A DNA stretch of 64,000 nt, taken from positions 32,001-96,000 of IMG/VR virus record IMGVR_UViG_3300045988_170760. One strand, given 5' to 3'. Both the position numbers and the translations under genes were made by a program. How positions within the stretch are numbered: position 1 is the first letter of the stretch; every line of letters begins with the position of its first letter. This DNA is from a virus. Below, one piece after another: positions 2,610-45,900 of the stretch. The notes under the pieces were generated by a model. It was not told the origin of the DNA. It did not search any database and saw only the letters and a program-made list of their open reading frames with translations.

Positions 2610-2849
2610 ATGAATATATTAAAGTTAGGTAAAAATCCAGGAACTCAAAAATATATAAAACGTTGTAGAAATTGTAAAAGTTTATTAGTATATGACGATA
2701 GTGATTTATTTCCTGATATGGAAATGGATTTATGTATAAAATGTCCAGTATGTGAAAAGATTTTACTTATTGGATTATTTCCAAGAAAATATAAACCAGA
2801 AAAACATGGAAAAATAAAAAATGAAATAGGTTTTAAAAAGGAGTTATGA
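2610..2849 (+). CDS. zinc-ribbon protein
   Basis: ATG at 2610 follows GGAGGT. Two CxxC pairs are present (CRNCKS and CPVCEK). Confidence 0.65.
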   Translation: MNILKLGKNPGTQKYIKRCRNCKSLLVYDDSDLFPDMEMDLCIKCPVCEKILLIGLFPRKYKPEKHGKIKNEIGFKKEL

Positions 2850-3016
2850 TGGATAAAGAATTAATTATTAATATGTTGGAAGATACAGATATAAAATATG
2901 TGATTGGAATTGATATCAATTTAGAGCTTTATGATAAGGATAGGGTTCGTATTGATTATATGAATTGTAACAAAGAGATTAAGCATATGGAAGGTTATTT
3001 TGACAATAGTATATAG
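2846..3016 (+). CDS. hypothetical small protein (56 aa, below track cutoff)
   Basis: ATGATG overlaps the preceding TGA. The frame stays open to TAG at 3014-3016 and fills an otherwise empty gap. Confidence 0.45.
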   Translation: MMDKELIINMLEDTDIKYVIGIDINLELYDKDRVRIDYMNCNKEIKHMEGYFDNSI

Positions 3017-3028
3017 AAAGGAGCAGGC

Positions 3029-3217
3029 ATGATTAGTTATATTAATGAATTATATAAAAAAGAAGTAGAAGACAATAAAGAATTAAGAGATTGGGTAGAT
3101 AAATTAGCTGATTTTATTTTATCAAACCATTATCAAATAACCCATGTAGATGAACAACAATGGAATAAAAAGAAAAGAGAAATTGTTGAAGAAATCTGCA
3201 TTAAGAAAGAGGTATAA
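3029..3217 (+). CDS. hypothetical protein
   Basis: 62-aa ORF with AAAGGAG upstream. Confidence 0.65.
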   Translation: MISYINELYKKEVEDNKELRDWVDKLADFILSNHYQITHVDEQQWNKKKREIVEEICIKKEV

Positions 3218-4530: not shown

Positions 4531-4984
4531 AAATGGTGAAATAAAAAAAGGAGATGTTTTATTTTTTGATACAAATAAATCCAGAAAAAATGAAATAGAA
4601 TATGACGGAGAACATTTTATTGCAAAGTGGACTATTAATAAATTAGACTTTTTAGAAATTTATAGTTTAGAAGAAGTAATGGATATGGACTTCAAATTAT
4701 ATGAGACAGTAACTATAGGAAACTTAGAATTGAGAGGCACTGATTTTGCAAGGCATGAGAACAGCCCATTTATGAATACGGCTGATACTTTGGAGATTGT
4801 TATAAAAGAAGAGATGTATTGCAGAACAATTGGATATTGGATGATGACTGAAATGGGATATGATTTTAGGTTTGTTGGTGATAGATTTTTGACAGAGGAT
4901 ATAGATATTTATGATTTATATGATTTAATAGAAGAAGGTCAAAAAATAACACAACAAATGTTTAAGGAGAAAAATAATGGATAG
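4499..4984 (+). CDS. hypothetical protein
   Basis: 161-aa ORF with TGGAGG upstream. Confidence 0.7.
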   Translation: MRIEEVILKIRNGEIKKGDVLFFDTNKSRKNEIEYDGEHFIAKWTINKLDFLEIYSLEEVMDMDFKLYETVTIGNLELRGTDFARHENSPFMNTADTLEIVIKEEMYCRTIGYWMMTEMGYDFRFVGDRFLTEDIDIYDLYDLIEEGQKITQQMFKEKNNG

Positions 4985-5103
4985 GTATTGTAAAGAATGT
5001 GTATATTTTCCTTGTATGAGAGAAGAATGTGATATATTTAAAGGACATTGTAATTATGGAAAATCAATTGTTACATTTGTTATAGAAGAACTTGCAAAGG
5101 AGA

Positions 5104-5520
5104 ATGGGTATAATGAATAGACCATCTTATATGAAAATTGGATATTGTAAAGGATATTGCAAAGAAACTAAGGAATGGATATATGGCTGGCATTGGACAG
5201 ATACACCATATGTTTGTTTTTATAATGGAGAGAAAATCAGGCATTTTATAAGAGTTCAAGTTAATTATGATTGGAATTTGACTGAACAAAGAGATTATGA
5301 AGTTGAGCCTGAAAGTATAGGTTATTATATTGGAAGAAATGATAGTAATAACATTCCAATGTTTTTAGGTGATAAGGTACATTTTACTAAGAATAAAAAA
5401 GACTATGAAGGTAAAATAGGGTACAATGTAGAAACTGCGGCTTATTGTATATTAGGAAATCCTTATGGAATAATAGTAGATTTTAGTAAGTTATCTAATA
5501 TAGAAATAAAAGATATTTAA
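5104..5520 (+). CDS. YopX-like protein (start 5104 or 5113)
   Basis: The C-terminal pattern ESIGYYIGRNDSNNIPMFLGDKVHF resembles the YopX family signature TIGqyTGlkDknGkeIyEGDiv. AAGGAG lies upstream. Confidence 0.45.
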   Translation: MGIMNRPSYMKIGYCKGYCKETKEWIYGWHWTDTPYVCFYNGEKIRHFIRVQVNYDWNLTEQRDYEVEPESIGYYIGRNDSNNIPMFLGDKVHFTKNKKDYEGKIGYNVETAAYCILGNPYGIIVDFSKLSNIEIKDI

Positions 5521-5658
5521 TAAAATAAATATCTTTTAAGACATAATGCTAGGAAGCATTGAGTTTACTAGCATTAAAAAATGAACTCGAAGATAATATG
5601 GAATTAAATGTAGTTAAGCTTCGAGTTCAATAAAATAAATATATGGAGGTAATAATAA

Positions 5659-6159
5659 ATGATTATTTTATTTGATATGAACAAAGAAATGTGTGATGCC
5701 TGGAACAAAGAATTTAAAGACTGTAATGATGTAAAGGTATTAAATATAAAACTTGACGAATTACAACCTGTAGATTATTTAGTAACAGCAGGTAATAGTT
5801 ATGGAATAATGAATGGTGGTATAGATTTAGCAGTAAGAAATTTGTTTGGAACAAGATTACAAGATAGGGTACAATGGGGTATTATAAGAAAATATAAAAA
5901 ATTATATTTACCTGTAGGAGATAATATAGTAGTTTATGGAAATAATAAATATAAAAATGTTATTTATGCACCTACTATGGAATTCCCAAAATTTATTTCT
6001 AAAGATTGTATATCTAAAATATTTTTAAATTGTTTATTAACAGCTAAGAATGGAAACATAGCATGTTGTGGTTTGGGAGCATTAACTGGAGGGCTTACTG
6101 TTACTACAGTAGCACAGGAAATGAAATTAGCATATAATAAATTTAAAAAAATAAATTAA
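5659..6159 (+). CDS. macro-domain (ADP-ribose binding/hydrolase) protein
   Basis: Motifs VTAGNSYGIMNGGIDLA, IYAPTM and GLGALTGG match the macro-fold nucleotide-binding loops. GGAGGT lies upstream. Confidence 0.55.
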   Translation: MIILFDMNKEMCDAWNKEFKDCNDVKVLNIKLDELQPVDYLVTAGNSYGIMNGGIDLAVRNLFGTRLQDRVQWGIIRKYKKLYLPVGDNIVVYGNNKYKNVIYAPTMEFPKFISKDCISKIFLNCLLTAKNGNIACCGLGALTGGLTVTTVAQEMKLAYNKFKKIN

Positions 6160-6179
6160 AATCGAAAGGATGATATATA

Positions 6180-6374
6180 ATGGATAGTTATGTAACTATA
6201 GAAAAAGAAGAAATATATGATATCTTATGTGGTTGTGGATTGATGACTATTTATACTAAAGAATATGGTTCATTAGAAATGACTGATGAAGATAGTATTA
6301 TGGAGGATTTTATTCCAGCAGTAGTAGACTATATCAATGACAAATTAGATAATACGAGATTATTTTTAGAATAA
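6180..6374 (+). CDS. hypothetical protein
   Basis: 64-aa ORF with AAAGGATG upstream. Confidence 0.6.
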   Translation: MDSYVTIEKEEIYDILCGCGLMTIYTKEYGSLEMTDEDSIMEDFIPAVVDYINDKLDNTRLFLE

Positions 6375-6377
6375 GTA

Positions 6378-6406
6378 TTGACATTGAATATAAAATATGG
6401 TATAAT
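6378..6406 (+). promoter_or_regulatory. consensus sigma70-type promoter
   Basis: TTGACA at 6378-6383, a 17-nt spacer ending in TGg, then TATAAT at 6401-6406. This is a perfect -35, extended -10 and -10. Confidence 0.7.
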
Positions 6407-6431
6407 AAATCAAAGAAGGAGGATAAAATAT

Positions 6432-31245: not shown

Positions 31246-32253
31246 ATGGCAATAGATAAAGGTTTAGCTTTAGTATCTGTAGCTGATGTATTGTTCTTTA
31301 ATCCTGTGACAGATGCTTATATTGGAGAAGGTTTAGCTTTAACAAACTCTACTTTAACACAAGAAGTTCAAAGTATTGAACAAAGAGGAGGATATCTAAA
31401 CGCATTATTATTCGATATCAAGCATAGTAAAACTGTAACAGTAGAATTAGAAAGTGCAACATTTAAAATGGAATATTTAGCATTCCAAACAGGAACACCA
31501 ATTGTTTCAGGTTTATCAGGAGTTTATAAATTTGATGAATGTGTTTCTTTCCAAAATGGTGTTGGAGAAACAGCGGATACTCCACTAGGAAATGTATATG
31601 TAAGAATGCCAAATGGTGCAGTAAAATCAATTGTACCAACAGGAAAAAGTGTAGATATTGGTATGGCAGAATTTAGTGGTTCTTTACAAGTTGTATATCA
31701 ATATAATGCACAAGTCGACCAAATCACAATTGACACAAAAACACAACCATTAACTGTAAAAGCTGTTATGAGAGTGCATGTTTTAAGTCAAGATGGTATC
31801 GAAGGATATATCCAAATTATAATTCCTAGATTAAAATTTAATGGTAGTATTTCACTAACATTAACATCAGATGCAGTGTCTACATTTGGTATTGGTGGAA
31901 CAGCACAAGAATATGCTACAGATTGTGGAGAAAGTTATTATGCAGATGCAAAATATATTAATACAGAGGATACAGCTGTTATTCCAGTAGAAAGTGTTGT
32001 AGCATCTCCAAACGTAATGACATTCTCAATGGCAGGAGTTCATGAAGCTACAGCTAATGTTATTGGTGTAAGAAGTACTCCATATTCTAATGTTCAATTA
32101 GATAATAGTGCATTAACATTTGAAAGTACAGACCAAGAAACAGCAACTGTAGATGCTACTGGTAGGATTACTGGTATTAAACAAGGTGAAACAACTATTA
32201 AAGTAACTTACCAAGGATTACAAGACCTTATTTCAGTTAATATTGGTGAATAA
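31246..32253 (+). CDS. major tail protein with C-terminal Big_2 Ig-like domain
   Basis: Strong RBS AAAGGAGAG. The C-terminal ATVDATGRITGIKQGETTIKVTYQG is a Big_2-type motif. Position lies between the connector genes and the tape measure. Confidence 0.55.
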   Translation: MAIDKGLALVSVADVLFFNPVTDAYIGEGLALTNSTLTQEVQSIEQRGGYLNALLFDIKHSKTVTVELESATFKMEYLAFQTGTPIVSGLSGVYKFDECVSFQNGVGETADTPLGNVYVRMPNGAVKSIVPTGKSVDIGMAEFSGSLQVVYQYNAQVDQITIDTKTQPLTVKAVMRVHVLSQDGIEGYIQIIIPRLKFNGSISLTLTSDAVSTFGIGGTAQEYATDCGESYYADAKYINTEDTAVIPVESVVASPNVMTFSMAGVHEATANVIGVRSTPYSNVQLDNSALTFESTDQETATVDATGRITGIKQGETTIKVTYQGLQDLISVNIGE

Positions 32254-40670: not shown

Positions 40671-41450
40671 ATGGCATCAAAATTTGAGGTAGTATTAACT
40701 GCCAAATTAGATGAGAATTCAGTAAAAGACATACAAAAGCAGATAAACAGTATAGTAAAAAATCAAGACTTAAGTATAAAGGCTGATAGTAAACAAGTAA
40801 ATAGCTTATCAAGGTCACTACAGGGATTAAGTAATGAAGCAAAAAATGCAAAAGGACATACTCAAGGTCTGAGTGATATAATTAGCAAATTTAGTAGTTG
40901 GCAAGTTGTTGGAGACGTTATTCATGGCGTAAAGAATGCTATGAGTGATATGGTACAACAGGTATTTGATTTAGATGCAAGTTTAACTGAATTAGACAAA
41001 GTAACAGATTTAACATCAAGTGGATTGCAAAGTTTAGCAGATGATGCTTTTGCAGTTGGAGAACAAATTGGGGCAACAGGTAAAGATGTAATAGATGCAA
41101 CTACACTTTTTGCTCAGGCAGGATATGAAGCCAGAGATGCTTTAGACTTAGGAGAACAAGCTATTATGCTTAAGAATGTGTCTGAGGCTGGTGCTACTGC
41201 TGAAAGTAGTGCAAGTACTTTGATTGCTGCAATGAAGGCATTTGGATTAGAAGCTTCAGATAGTAGTCATGTAGTAGATGCTTTAAATGAAGTGTCTAAC
41301 AAATATGCAGTAAGTGTAAATGATTTATCAACTGCTATTAGCAAATCTTCCGCATCAATGGCGGCGGGTAACAACTCTTTAGAGGAAACCTTTGGATTGG
41401 TAACAGCTGGGGTGGAAATCCTAAGGGAACCGGGTAGAGTTGCGAACGGT
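40671..41450 (+). CDS. tail tape measure protein, exon 1
   Basis: TP901-type tape-measure core pattern ending ...VEILREPGRVANG. The frame is broken by TAA at 41451, which is the first triplet of the intron. Confidence 0.75.
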
Positions 41451-41660
41451 TAATTTTAGGCTGTTCATATATAGAAATATATATAAGGAAAAGACCTTTA
41501 ATTGCTGGAACCCCCTTAGAGCTATATTGCCACAACATAGCAATGAAAAATATGCAAGTGTGATGGCTTAAAAAGTATATAGATTGGGAAATCAGCAGCC
41601 AAGCTCCGAATAGGAGAAGGTTCAACGACTATCGCTTAGGTTATATTATTTTTTTATATA

Positions 41661-41689
41661 TTGACATTTATAATAAAATATGATATAAT
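41661..41689 (+). promoter_or_regulatory. consensus sigma70-type promoter inside the intron
   Basis: TTGACA, a 17-nt spacer ending in TGa, then TATAAT. Confidence 0.55.
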
Positions 41690-41823
41690 ATAACAATACG
41701 AGTAGGGCTCAAGTGAGCGGGTGAAAATCCCTTAAATCGAAATGGGGTCATACTAAACAGGTAATGCTGAAGTATAAGATATAGTCTAATCTCATATGAA
41801 AGTATGAGGGAATGGAGTAAAAT

Positions 41824-42959
41824 ATGAAAAGAATATAGAAGAAGTTAAAAATGAATTTATTAAAAGAGGATATATACCTTTATTTGATACTTATAAAAAT
41901 AATAAAGAAAAGTTAAAATTTAAAAATAAAAATGGATATATTGGAAATATATCATTAAATAAGATTAATAATATTGATAATTATTTATACTTTTCTATTT
42001 TTAATGAAAATGTTATAGATAATATTAATACTTATTGTAGAGAACACAGATTAATGTGTGAAGTATATCCACAAGAATATAAAGGAATAGATTATCATAT
42101 GAGGGCAAAGTGCTTAATTTGTGGAAAAGATTTTTATACAACATGGCATATTATTAGTGATAAAAGGTATAATAAATATAAAAAATGTTGTAAGTACTGT
42201 TCTAATAAATTAACTCATATGAATGATTTATCTAAGTATAGTTTTTCAGAAGTATATAATATATTTAAAAGTAATGGATTATTGTTGCTAGATAGTGAAT
42301 ATGTTAATAATACTATAAAGATGGATTGTGAGGATGCAGAAGGATATAGAGGTAGTCTAAGTTTTCATCAATTGCTTAGTGGATGTATGTTTAATAAATT
42401 CCATAAGTCTAACCCTTATTCTATCTATAATTTAAACTTATTTTTTGAGATAAATAATTGTAAAACTAAAGTACTTGATAAAGAATATAGGGGCAATAAA
42501 TATAATTATAACTTTAAGTGTGAGTGTGGAAATATTTTTAAAAGGTCTATAGATGGTGTTGTATATAATGGTTCTCTATATTGTTTAGATTGTACAAAAC
42601 ATAGGAAATCTAGTTATCATTTAAAAGTTAGAGATTGGTTAGATGATAATAATATAAATTATATTGAAGAGTATACTTTTGATAATTGTAAGGATTTAAA
42701 TAAGTTGCCATTTGATTTTTACTTGCCAGATTATAATTTATGTATAGAGGTTCAAGGTGAACAACATTATACTCCAAAAGATATATTTGGTGGTGTTAAT
42801 GGATTTGAAAAGATAATAAGTCATAGCATTGTAAAAAAATATTATTGTAATTGCAATAATATTTGTTTTGTAAAAATAGATTATTCTGATTTTACTAATG
42901 ATAATTATATATATATTTTACTACATTCTATTAAAACTAACGATTTTAATAAAATATAA
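41824..42959 (+). pseudogene. intron-encoded homing endonuclease (Vsr/PD-(D/E)XK, EDxHD-like), with start codon out of frame
   Basis: GGAG-N6-ATG at 41824 opens only 4 codons. The long frame, open from 41808, has no ATG, GTG or TTG before 42054, yet codes a plausible N-terminal module (EEVKNEFIKRGYIPL...). One extra A in the A4 run would fuse them. The C-terminus reads FDFYLPDYNLCIEVQGEQH. Confidence 0.6.
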
Positions 42960-42961
42960 AG

Positions 42962-45900
42962 CTAAGTACAATTACAGCACGTTTAACAGCAAAAAATGAC
43001 GAATATATTAAATCTATTACAGGTGGTCAAGGAGTAATAGATGAACAGACTGGAGAATTGCGTTCTACATTCGATATTTTACAAGATTTAGCAGGTGCTT
43101 GGGATACATTAACTTCAGTAGAAAAACAAGAGTTGGCTGAAACTGTAGCAGGAAAAACTCAAAGGTCATTATTCACAGCTATTATGACAAACTTTGAAAG
43201 TGCTGTAGGTGCAACAGAAGCCGCATTGAATAGTGAGGGAAGTGCAGCTGCTGAAAATGAAAAAAGAATGGATAGTTTACAAGGAAAAACTCAACAGTTA
43301 CAGGCTGCTTGGCAAGATTTTGCTCGTAATACAATTAATAGTGAATTAGTAAAAAGCATATTGAGCTTAGGAACAACAATATTAAATTTTGCTAATAGTG
43401 ATATGGGAAGATTTATACTAGTGCTAGGGACTGCAACTACAGCAGTAGGATTATTAAAAAAAGCATTAACTGCTGATAATTTATTAAAGTTTGCAAGCGG
43501 TTTTAATTCTCTTACTAAAGCGGTAGCAGCAGGTACAACTGCATTCCAATTAGCGAGTGCTACAGGTGGAACATTCAGAGCATCAATGATAGCTGCTGGG
43601 GCAGGAGTAGAGGTGCTTACAAAATCATTATTGGCTAGTCCTTTATTTGGTGTGGTTGCAGCAGGAATGGCTATTTGGGGTATTATCGAAGCTATTAATG
43701 TATTAATGCCAAAAATGGAAGATTTGTCTAAGGCTACAGAAGAAAGCACTGCTGCTTATGAAGAGCAAAAACAGAAGACGGAACAGATAAGAAATGAATT
43801 AGATAGTTTAAATACAGAAATTACTGAATTAGAAAAAAAGGGGACTTTAACTTTTACAGATGAAAAAGAATTAGAAAACTTGAAAGAACAAAAAAAAGAG
43901 TTAGAAGATAGTTTGACTATTGCTGAGAAGCTAGAGAAAGCTAAGAAAGAAGCAGCTGCGATAGATATAGCTGAAGAGTTACAACATGTATCTAATAATC
44001 CTTTTGAGTTTTTAAATGTTGATGATGCTGAAAGGTCTATAGAAGATGCGAAAAAGATATTAAAAGACGCTGGTGATGATTTGGCTGATATATTGGGTGG
44101 CAATGGAGAAAATATTAGAAGAGAAACTCAAGATATGGCATCTGCATATGTTCACTTAGCTGATGAAATTACAAAACAAAAAGAAAGAATGGCACAAGGT
44201 GATACGATTTCTGATGAAGACCAAGAAAAATTAGAAGAAATGGAAAGAGTATATAGTGAATTAGGAGGACATTTAGCTGAAAATGCAGAAAAATTTCAAG
44301 AGTGGTCTGAAACTCTAGAAGGCGGCGGTGAAGAAGCCGAAAAGACAAAGGGTATTGTAGATACATTATTAGATACAATTGATAAGGCATTAGATACAAC
44401 AGAAGATGTTACAGAAGCAACAGAAGAAGCAGGCAAAAGCATGAATGTCTATGAAGAAGACATACAAAAAACAACAGATGCCTTTAATGCTCAGTCTGAA
44501 GCATTAGATACAGCTCAGAAATCTTATGATGTTTTAAAATCAGCTATAGATGAATATAATAATAGTGGATATTTGTCTATTGATACCTTGCAATCTTTAT
44601 TAGCATTAGATGATGAACATTTGGCTATGTTAAGTTTAGAAAATGGTCAATTAGCTTTAAATACTACTAGTATAGACCAAATGACCGATAGTTTAATAGC
44701 TCAGAGGGTCAGTCAACTACAAGCTTCTGCTGCTCAAGATTTATATAATTTGGCTCTTGGTAATACCGAAAGTTTGTCTTCAGTAGCAAAAAATGCAATT
44801 GCTAATGCAGGGACATCAGCAGAAATTACTGGAAATCAATTTTCTAGTGCTGTCCCTAAAATAGCAGAATTTACAGCAGCTTTAAATGAAGCGAAAAAGG
44901 CTGCTGGAGATGCAACAGCTGGTGGACAGGAAAATTTTGAAGCAGATGCCCAAAAAATAATTTCTTCATATCAAAATATATTCAGTGGAATTACTGCTTT
45001 GGGTGGTTCTACAACTAAAGCAGGAGGAACATCAGGAAGTGGACACAGATATACTGGTAGTTCATCAGGTAGAAAATCATCAGGAGGCTCAGGTAAGAAA
45101 TCTTCTAGTAAATCTGCCAAGGAAGAATATAAGCCAGAAGTTGATGCATTATATTGGTATAAAAATGCCTTAGATAATGCTGAAGAAAGTGTAGACAAGC
45201 TAAATGATGCACTAAAAAATACTGATAACTTTAACGAACAGGAGAAATATTTAAATCAGTTAATTGAAGCTACTAATAATCAAATCAATAAGACTAACGA
45301 TTTGAAAAATGCTCAAGTAGGGCAAATAAATGATTTTATTAATCAGTTAAGACAGCAAGGGTTTGCTATTGATTATAATAGCCAAAGTAATGAGTTATAT
45401 ATTAATAATATGCAACATTTATCAGACTTTACTGGAGATGCTGCTAAGAATATAGAAAAGTTAATAGATAAAATTCAAGATTTAAATGATGATAATAGAG
45501 ACTTAGATAGCTCTGTAAGAGACTTAACATCTGATGTAAAAGATTATTATGACCAATTAGCTGAAATACCTGAGAAGAAACTTGAGAAGTTCAATGATTT
45601 GATGGAAGAATTCCAACAAAGTAGATTAGACCAAGTCCAATATCAAATTGAAGACCTTGAACATGAGATGGAAAATGACCCAAGATTAAAGGCATTAGAG
45701 GAACAAATTGAAGCATTAGAAAAACAAAATGATGAACTAGACAAACAAGAAGAAATGGAAGAAAAACTTCTTGCTGTAGAAGAAGCAAAACTAAAGCTTC
45801 AAAATGCACAACAACAAAAGACATTACAAGTGTATAGGGAAGGACAAGGTTTCGTCTGGGAAGTTGACCCTGATGCTATTAAAGAAGCTCAAGAAGAATT

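Follow-up and report, generated by a model that had tools for sequence, protein, structure and literature searches.

A predicted homing group I intron of subgroup IA in the tape-measure gene of a low-GC tailed phage

We analyzed a stretch of 64,000 nucleotides of viral DNA (positions 32,001 to 96,000 of IMG/VR record IMGVR_UViG_3300045988_170760, hereafter the window) and found that positions 41451-42961 very probably constitute a self-splicing group I intron of the subgroup IA type, inserted into the tape-measure gene of a low-GC (28.9%) tailed phage. We assign this reading a probability of about 0.93. The intron and its splice sites, between 41450 and 41451 and between 42961 and 42962, had been proposed in a first-pass annotation, and they are now supported by a covariance model, covariation among related introns, restoration of the host protein domain, a seamless exon junction, and a signature of homing. 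Three features had gone unremarked there: the open reading frame (ORF) within the intron is a homing-endonuclease gene (HEG), this gene is frameshifted, and a promoter lies inside the intron.

Host-gene restoration and RNA structure of the intron

The tape-measure reading frame ends in a TAA at 41451-41453 and restarts in phase at 42962, as the first-pass annotation had stated, reading ...REPGRVANG followed by LSTITARLTAKND. The mechanical ORF of exon 1 opens at GTG 40659; the ATG at 40671, which has a ribosome-binding site (RBS) GGAAGGTGG ahead of it, is the likelier start, and the gene call for this exon in a relative comprises 260 amino acids (aa). The interrupted gene is organized as follows.

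40671..41450, + strand: tape-measure exon 1, likely start ATG 40671
41451..42961, + strand: group I intron, 1511 nt (1512 nt in relatives), opening with the in-frame TAA and ending in G42961
42962..46480, + strand: tape-measure exon 2, 1172 codons plus stop

On exon 1 alone, the PF10145 profile matched from position 2 to 124 of 201 (60.4 bits), with the match ending exactly at the exon end. On the protein spliced in silico, the same profile matched from 2 to 201 of 201 at 87.9 bits (cut-off 33.2), and TIGR01760 (tape_meas_TP901) aligned in a single stretch, 3-298 of 349, at 127.4 bits (cut-off 28.8). The insertion was already placed by the first-pass annotation in the most conserved segment of the gene, and this segment corresponds to the PF10145/TIGR01760 domain. 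Upstream there is a portal gene, and tail or baseplate genes follow directly; this tail-module position and the hidden Markov model scores above cut-off identify the product as a phage tail tape measure protein.

The spliced junction, ...EILREPGRVANG followed by LSTITARLT, is the same as in uninterrupted relatives, and the predicted ligated-exon DNA reads ...GCGAACGGT joined to CTAAGTACA... Comparison with intron-less homologues, which the first-pass annotation had proposed as a check, gave a seamless junction and no extra residues. Deposited intron-less phage homologues, the closest being from Enterocloster phages (39.8% aa identity), align over the junction in a single piece. Four close relatives with an empty site, found in an IMG/VR scan (L007, L008, L009, and L010), read EIL(R/Q)EPGRVANGLSTITARLT, with zero residues gained or lost; L007 is 93% identical over the tape-measure domain. 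The DNA on the two sides of the empty site is GTTGCTAATGGA and TTATCAACTATT in L007, and GTTGCGAATGGA and TTAAGTACAATC in L009. Across the splice site, occupied alleles read GGT-CTA and empty alleles GGA-TTA, and the U required for the U.G pair at the 5' splice site is found only in the former.

A 5' splice site after U41451, where a U.G pair would also be possible, was considered and rejected. Combined with the terminal G42961 it would shift the frame, and combined with a 3' splice site between 42962 and 42963 it would yield the same protein but an intron ending in C; the twin requirement of a terminal G42961 and a preserved frame excludes it. We also rejected an intein, as the insert opens with a stop codon in the host frame and contains a ribozyme. 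As a separate observation on this gene, the tape-measure frame of L009 and L010 (at about 3108-3110) and of L019 (at about 1176-1178) undergoes a +1 shift between residues 140 and 141, beyond which homology follows the new frame. Seen on three independent contigs, this could be a real frameshift or an indel common to a sub-lineage. The L013 frame also shifts, inside the EILREP...GRVANG segment.

The search with Rfam model RF00028 that the first-pass annotation had suggested, run on 41350-43050, matched 41440-41808 over the entire model (1-253 of 253) at 57.3 bits (gathering score 50, E = 1.7e-13). The P, Q, R, and S elements occur once each, in order and where they had been placed: P AATTGCTGG at 41500, Q AATCAGCAG at 41590, R GTTCAACGACTA at 41620, and S AAGATATAGTC at 41776. 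We built a P1-P9 model from the Rfam alignment, a minimum-free-energy fold, and manual pairing, and every pair in it is canonical. Its elements, all on the + strand, are listed below.

41444-50/41460-66: P1 hairpin, exon 1 GAACGGU with guide GCUGUUC, 5' splice site at U41450.G41460
41455-59 with 42962-66: P10, P1-loop UUUAG with exon 2 CUAAG
41467..41808: ribozyme core, P2-P9
41467-73/78-84: P2
41493-98/41744-49: P3
41503-08/92-97: P4
41511-13/86-88: P5, with extensions
41598-600/19-21: P6
41604-07/13-16: P6a
41627-32/41781-86: P7, GACUAU with AUAGUC
41640-49/85-94: P7.1, plus base pairs 41633-34/99-700, which show compensatory changes
41707-10/15-18: P7.2
41750-54/71-75: P8
41791-97/41802-08: P9, with a GAAA loop

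The guide sequence spans 41455-41466, and its pairing with both exons (with the terminal U of exon 1 in a U.G pair and with exon 2 through P10), the terminal G, and the P7 strands GACTAT/ATAGTC are all present in the sequence as the first-pass annotation had described them. The RF00028 score, the core helices including the P3/P7 pseudoknot, the U.G pair of P1, the terminal G with P10, and the seamless host gene are in agreement with a group I intron. With P7.1 and P7.2 in its predicted fold, the intron belongs to subgroup IA (IA2-like, with IA1 and IA2 not formally separated), the assignment that the first-pass annotation had left to be made.

We assessed the model by covariation in an alignment of 10 related introns from the tape-measure genes of relatives. 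Of the cells, 92.2% were paired compared with 30-50% in controls slid by 1-3 columns. Because the aligned introns are fairly closely related (74-99% identity) and one of them supplied the structure, the former percentage is inflated, an effect that is smaller for the compensatory pairs. Compensatory double changes occurred in 25 of 89 pairs (2-8 in the slid controls), and none of 500 shuffles reached the observed values. Such changes were found in P2, P3, P4, P5b/c, P6, P6a, P7, the P7.1 base, P7.2, P8, and P9, as exemplified by P3 (GACCUU/GGGGUC versus AUCCUU/GGGGAU), P7 (GACUAU/AUAGUC versus GGCUAU/AUAGCC), and P6a (CUCC/GGAG versus UCUC/GAGA). Pairing in P1 was low (52.9%), as expected, because guide sequences vary with the insertion site.

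In the mechanism that we propose, late transcription would allow the ribozyme (41451-41808) to fold, and the guide would hold exon 1 through P1, with U41450 opposite G41460. An exogenous guanosine would attack the bond after U41450, P10 would align exon 2, and the exons would be ligated after G42961. The product would be an uninterrupted mRNA encoding a tape-measure protein of ~1432 aa, with the junction ...GRVANG-LSTITARL.... The HEG, carried in a 3' extension after P9, would encode a protein that cuts intron-less tape-measure alleles during co-infection, and repair of the cut allele would copy the intron in (homing); among relatives of the window phage, such transfer has happened recently.

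The intron-borne nuclease gene and its probable promoter

The HEG follows P9 and ends with a stop codon 2 nt short of the 3' splice site. The features of the gene and of the promoter directed at it are as follows.

41661..41689, + strand: sigma-70/sigma-A-type promoter, TTGACA-N17-TATAAT with TG at -15/-14, in the P7.1 loop and pointing at the HEG
41814..41826, + strand: HEG start, RBS GGAG at 41814-17 and ATG at 41824-26; homologues start MKKNIEEVK at the equivalent ATG
41827..41830, + strand: run of four A residues, five in all four relatives, a 1-base deletion
41826..42959, + strand: rest of the HEG frame, 377 codons, otherwise intact and 98% identical to P0001

In the window, the start frame reads ATG AAA AGA ATA TAG and so terminates at codon 5. 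The closest homologue, P0001 (98%), begins MKKNIEEVK, and its DNA reads ATG-AAAAA-G compared with ATG-AAAA-G in the window. No in-frame ATG, GTG, or TTG occurs in the rest of the frame ahead of 42054. The deletion may have inactivated the gene very recently, or it may be a homopolymer sequencing error; the intact 377 codons fit both. The GC content of 41824-42961 is 21.4%, compared with 33-37% in the exons and 28.9% in the window, which fits a putatively foreign, recently acquired cassette.

The frameshift bears directly on the strongest alternative, namely that the intron is real but an immobile, decaying copy, in which the HEG is truly inactivated and the splicing intron is a passenger at the first step of an invasion-degeneration-loss cycle. 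The shortened A run, the early stop, and the missing start codon favor this view, as do ORF-less derivatives of the same ribozyme lineage in L012, L013, L015, and L017. In contrast, all other codons of the gene are preserved at 98% identity to an intact homologue, which means that any inactivation would have to be extremely recent, and a single-base homopolymer difference is the commonest sequencing or assembly error. We regard this explanation as a serious one, with a chance that falls not far short of even.

Homologues of the intron ORF number 552, and the full-length ones comprise 373-378 aa. Pfam and NCBIfam searches with the window ORF found no family, and the PHROG families to which it belongs are labeled HNH endonuclease, homing endonuclease, or intron-encoded nuclease. 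The window protein consists of two tandem modules (an alpha/beta unit, then a Cys4 zinc ribbon) followed by a C-terminal PD-(D/E)xK-like domain (FDFYLP...IEVQGEQHY...K). Cysteine pairs C123/C126, C233/C235, and C254/C257 are invariant in the family alignment, and so is the C-terminal signature F-D298-F-Y-L ... I-E309-x-x-G-x-x-H315 ... K338, with Q314 nearly invariant. An AlphaFold (AF2) model of the nuclease reached a predicted local distance difference test score (pLDDT) of 89.9. Foldseek searches with this model against predicted viral structures returned many matches, with E values down to 1e-35, labeled homing endonuclease, group I intron protein, DUF2726, DUF559, treble-clef zinc finger, or restriction enzyme. 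Against the PDB, a whole-chain Foldseek search gave nothing at E <= 0.001, and weak local matches (E >= 0.03) were to RAP-domain proteins (probability 0.99) and to Vsr (1vsr, probability 0.89, E 0.35).

Two established nuclease classes were considered for this product and set aside. The HNH class, suggested by the label of PHROG 559, was rejected, as no HNH Pfam family is among the 17 listed for 30 family members at E <= 0.01 (PvuRts1I-like_N is found in 7 of the 30, DUF4379 in 5, and DUF2726 in 2); the label looks like an annotation habit. The EDxHD class was rejected because a profile search of PDB sequences at E <= 10 fails to recover the I-Bth0305I chain 3r3p and because the motif differs. 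We place the predicted product, a nuclease that combines zinc ribbons with a PD-(D/E)xK-like domain, in a widespread and biochemically uncharacterized family, outside the HNH and EDxHD classes.

The promoter in the P7.1 loop matches the consensus at 12 of 12 positions and is the best site in a 4-kb scan; perfect TTGACA-N17-TATAAT matches number 2 in the 64 kb, compared with 0.23 expected. Across 54 fetched loci, perfect matches occur only within ribozymes of this lineage, and both hexamers are nearly invariant in related introns, with the remaining P7.1 loop variable. The promoter probably drives the HEG, which begins ~135 nt downstream, independently of the late host gene. This suggestion is weakened by the retention of the promoter in ORF-less members of the lineage, and by the close relationship of the introns compared. 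The other perfect match in the window, at 6378-6406 on the + strand, has a nearly identical spacer (TTGACATTGAATATAAAATATGGTATAAT, compared with TTGACATTTATAATAAAATATGATATAAT in the intron promoter) and probably represents a strong promoter of the phage, built to the same design.

Recent mobility and alternative explanations

The same intron occurs at the same nucleotide in L004, L005, L006, and L011, which are independent ENA, Logan, and IMG/VR contigs, so that the arrangement is present on at least five independent contigs. At this site (site C below), L004-L006 and L011 are occupied and L007-L010 are empty. The intron is far better conserved than its surroundings: identity to relatives is 97.8-100% in the intron versus 74-85% in the exons. 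Between L011 and the window, the ribozyme is 100% and the nuclease gene 99.8% identical, with only 2 differences in the ~1,512-nt intron (99.9% identity), and the exons are 80.8% and 79.2% identical. The corresponding values for L004 are 99.5% for the ribozyme, 97.8% for the nuclease gene, and 85.2% and 73.9% for the exons. Immediately beside the intron, the exons match at 100% over 15-78 nt on the 5' side and 30-38 nt on the 3' side, beyond which identity falls to background. Such flanking tracts are expected after recent lateral transfer through double-strand-break repair that co-converts short stretches of exon, and the sequences thus point to an intron that is mobile now or was so recently.

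Close relatives of the locus (89-98% nucleotide identity) were found only as metagenomic contigs of 100-122 kb. A megablast search of a 2.8-kb tape-measure/intron query against 50,697 phage genomes recovered no related phage; its sole matches, of 141 nt, were to unannotated introns in RNA polymerase beta genes of Serratia and Pectobacterium jumbo phages.

These comparisons also bear on a second alternative, in which the gene is split by a free-standing nuclease gene, its halves are unspliced separate proteins, and the ribozyme-like sequence is a dead relic. Deposited genomes do annotate such genes as two coding sequences (CDSs), as in Geobacillus virus E3 and Thomasclavelia phage TR-TP1. The junction offers exon 2 no start codon of its own, a point that can be taken to favor a split; at the same time, the lack of both an RBS and a start codon at 42962 speaks against this alternative. 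Moreover, the complete ribozyme exceeds the Rfam cut-off and is 100% identical in phages with 20% exon divergence; its helices keep pairing through compensatory changes; and the split falls within a single conserved domain with zero residues lost or gained. We consider a split gene very improbable. Least credible of all is an assembly artefact, a chimeric contig joining the intron/HEG cassette of another phage into the tape-measure gene, which would suit the metagenomic assembly of the window's relatives and the unusually low GC of the HEG but which is contradicted by the same insertion at the same nucleotide on contigs from three sources, by a guide complementary to exactly this exon context, and by co-conversion tracts flanking the intron as homing predicts.

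Several observations weigh against the interpretation of 41451-42961 as a mobile self-splicing intron. Splicing and nuclease activity are both predictions from sequence. Default Rfam scans of the whole 64 kb, by gathering threshold and then by E value, gave two tRNAs and no intron; we do not take this miss as evidence against the intron, because the restricted 1.7-kb scan scores above the cut-off, which identifies the miss as a speed-filter effect. The Rfam alignment is poor (low posterior probability) at P7.1-P8, and the model there comes from manual pairing and covariation, for which the kinship of the aligned introns has been noted. The HEG is frameshifted in the window copy, which may be unable to home on its own. 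Finally, the nuclease fold assignment is weak with respect to solved structures, and PDB sequence searches, whether run with the single protein or with a 30-member profile, recovered no nuclease or homing endonuclease, giving only weak zinc-ribbon matches and one marginal VapC match.

Re-targeting of the ribozyme lineage and comparison with known introns

Ribozymes of the same lineage (74-90% nucleotide identity) are present at other sites of the same tape-measure domain in related phages, and sites A, B, and C lie within 42 codons.

Site A, after D222 (KYAVSVND): L015, L017; guide GGUCG, exon CGACU
Site B, after G251 (FGLVTAG): L012, L013, L014, L017, L019; guide GCUCGC, exon GCGGGU
Site C, after G264 (the window's site), HEG-bearing intron: window, L004-6, L011; guide GCUGUU, exon AACGGU
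Site C, different ORF-less intron of 328 nt: L012, L015, L017; guide GCCAUU, exon AAUGGU
Site about 3 codons after C: MT835469
Site near residue 322: Thomasclavelia phage TR-TP1, MT835469

At sites A, B, and C, the guides are matched to their own exons. Three introns occur in L017 (3355-5756) and two in L012 (3442-4209); in both, a 39-nt mini-exon encoding TEILREPGRVANG separates the introns at sites B and C. At sites A and B, the encoded nucleases are members of the window nuclease's family but share only 32-40% aa identity with it. Within the 64-kb window, a search by nhmmer with a profile of related introns and motif scans found no further introns of this lineage, the sole weak match (6359-6413) being the promoter look-alike.

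Tentatively, and with the odds somewhat against it, these data can be read as describing a reusable carrier: a ribozyme lineage with its own promoter in the P7.1 loop, re-aimed through its guide to at least three sites (after 222, 251, and 264), with up to three introns per gene, and paired with diverged zinc-ribbon PD-(D/E)xK-like nucleases (32-40% aa identity). If this holds, the nuclease mRNA would start inside the ribozyme and could neither fold as a ribozyme nor splice, it could appear early, ahead of the late tape-measure transcript, and the nuclease family might add a structural class to the known homing endonucleases.

The T4 td, nrdB, and sunY introns (encoding I-TevI, II, and III) are of the IA type, contain P7.1/P7.2, and carry the HEG looped out of the core or 3' of it; intron nuclease genes of T4 have promoters of their own, and I-TevI is expressed from promoters inside the intron and not from the host-gene transcript. 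The T4 HEGs are of the GIY-YIG or HNH class and reside in nucleotide-metabolism genes, whereas the window intron resides in a tape-measure gene and its internal promoter is a perfect host sigma-70-type consensus, unlike a T4 middle or late promoter.

The first-pass annotation knew of no described intron in a tape-measure core, a claim that does not stand: precedents date from 2008 (PMC2504315), and a spliced case is known in ICP1 (PMC10448857). Three tape-measure intron sites, with IA1/IA2 introns, were described in prophages of the Bacillus cereus group, including all B. anthracis strains (Tourasse & Kolsto 2008, PMC2504315), together with re-targeted guides, different introns at one site, and in-frame stops at the intron start. 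The same study lists the tape-measure intron of Lactobacillus phage JCL1032, and subgroup IA is the class that it reports for phage tape-measure introns. The window intron resembles B. cereus TMP-IVS1/IVS2/IVS3 (including that of B. anthracis lambdaBa01) as an in-frame IA-type intron in the conserved part of a TP901-type tape-measure gene, with a stop at or near the intron start, several sites per gene, presence/absence polymorphism in related phages, ribozymes re-targeted through P1/guide changes, and different introns at one site. It differs in belonging to another phage lineage, with ~30-35% tape-measure identity to deposited Bacillus phages (not those prophages), and in its nearly intact HEG; two of the prophage introns, TMP-IVS3b and the tail-tube intron, are said to lack a complete one (PMC2504315).

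Barth et al. 2023 (PMC10448857) termed the tape-measure gene frequently interrupted by nuclease genes and, using RNA-seq and RT-PCR, demonstrated splicing of the interrupted gene in Vibrio phage ICP1. As in ICP1, the window gene is split by an intron-borne HEG; the ICP1 nuclease is of the HNH-3 type and its host Gram-negative, whereas the window nuclease is of the zinc-ribbon plus PD-(D/E)xK-like type, and splicing, demonstrated for ICP1, is predicted for the window intron. Like the window protein, I-Bth0305I (Taylor et al. 2011, PMC3239194) is intron-encoded; its intron lies in the recA gene of a Firmicute phage. It has N-terminal DNA-binding modules and a C-terminal domain of the Vsr/PD-(D/E)xK fold class, a plan that the predicted fold of the window nuclease would share. 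The two proteins have no detectable sequence similarity, and they differ in their modules (Cys4 zinc ribbons versus NUMOD helix-turn-helix) and motifs (D...E-x-Q-G-x-Q-H...K versus EDxHD).

Two deposited phages offer further comparisons. Geobacillus virus E3 (KP144388, L001) contains at 2809-3110 an unannotated group I intron (RF00028 48.7 bits, E 3e-11) between CDSs annotated as N-terminal and C-terminal tape-measure (GP42/GP43), in the same domain; unlike the window intron it has no ORF, and it is inserted after ALNEV, ~50 codons upstream of site C. In Thomasclavelia phage TR-TP1 (PQ571309, L054), 4688-6228 holds a ribozyme of the same lineage (4711-5013) and an HEG of the same family (30% aa identity), near residue 322, ~58 codons downstream of site C. 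There the tape-measure gene is annotated as gp27 and gp29, with 'HNH endonuclease' genes between them (gp28) and after them (gp30); at least the first gap holds a ribozyme.

Tape-measure introns and their splicing are already documented, and the current understanding is unchanged by this locus. Its additions are modest: a frameshifted HEG, a consensus promoter inside the ribozyme, a dense multi-site series, and an uncharacterized nuclease family. For annotation, gene calling would divide this tape-measure gene into two or three ORFs, and a routine Rfam scan overlooks the intron; the same kind of unannotated intron is found in Geobacillus virus E3, Thomasclavelia phage TR-TP1, and Serratia jumbo phages. 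A correct spliced model matters because tail length is read off tape-measure length. Together with its metagenomic relatives, the locus forms a natural series (empty, occupied with an HEG, occupied without one, and with one to three introns per gene) that could be used for studying the re-targeting of group I introns and the decay of nuclease genes.

Outside tape-measure genes, Serratia phage 2050HW (MF285618, L003), a jumbo phage of a Gram-negative host, has an unannotated group I intron at 2450-2733 (RF00028 82.6 bits) that splits its RNA polymerase beta-subunit gene, with a 'putative endonuclease' CDS just upstream. Similar unannotated beta-subunit introns occur in Serratia phage Haymo and Pectobacterium phage vB_ParM-25. 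The P3-P6 region of the Serratia/Pectobacterium jumbo-phage intron is ~78-79% identical to that of the window intron, a high value for such different hosts. In the window itself, the other structured RNA genes observed were those for tRNA-Pro (TGG) and tRNA-Thr (TGT), at 15538-15614 and 15664-15738 on the + strand.

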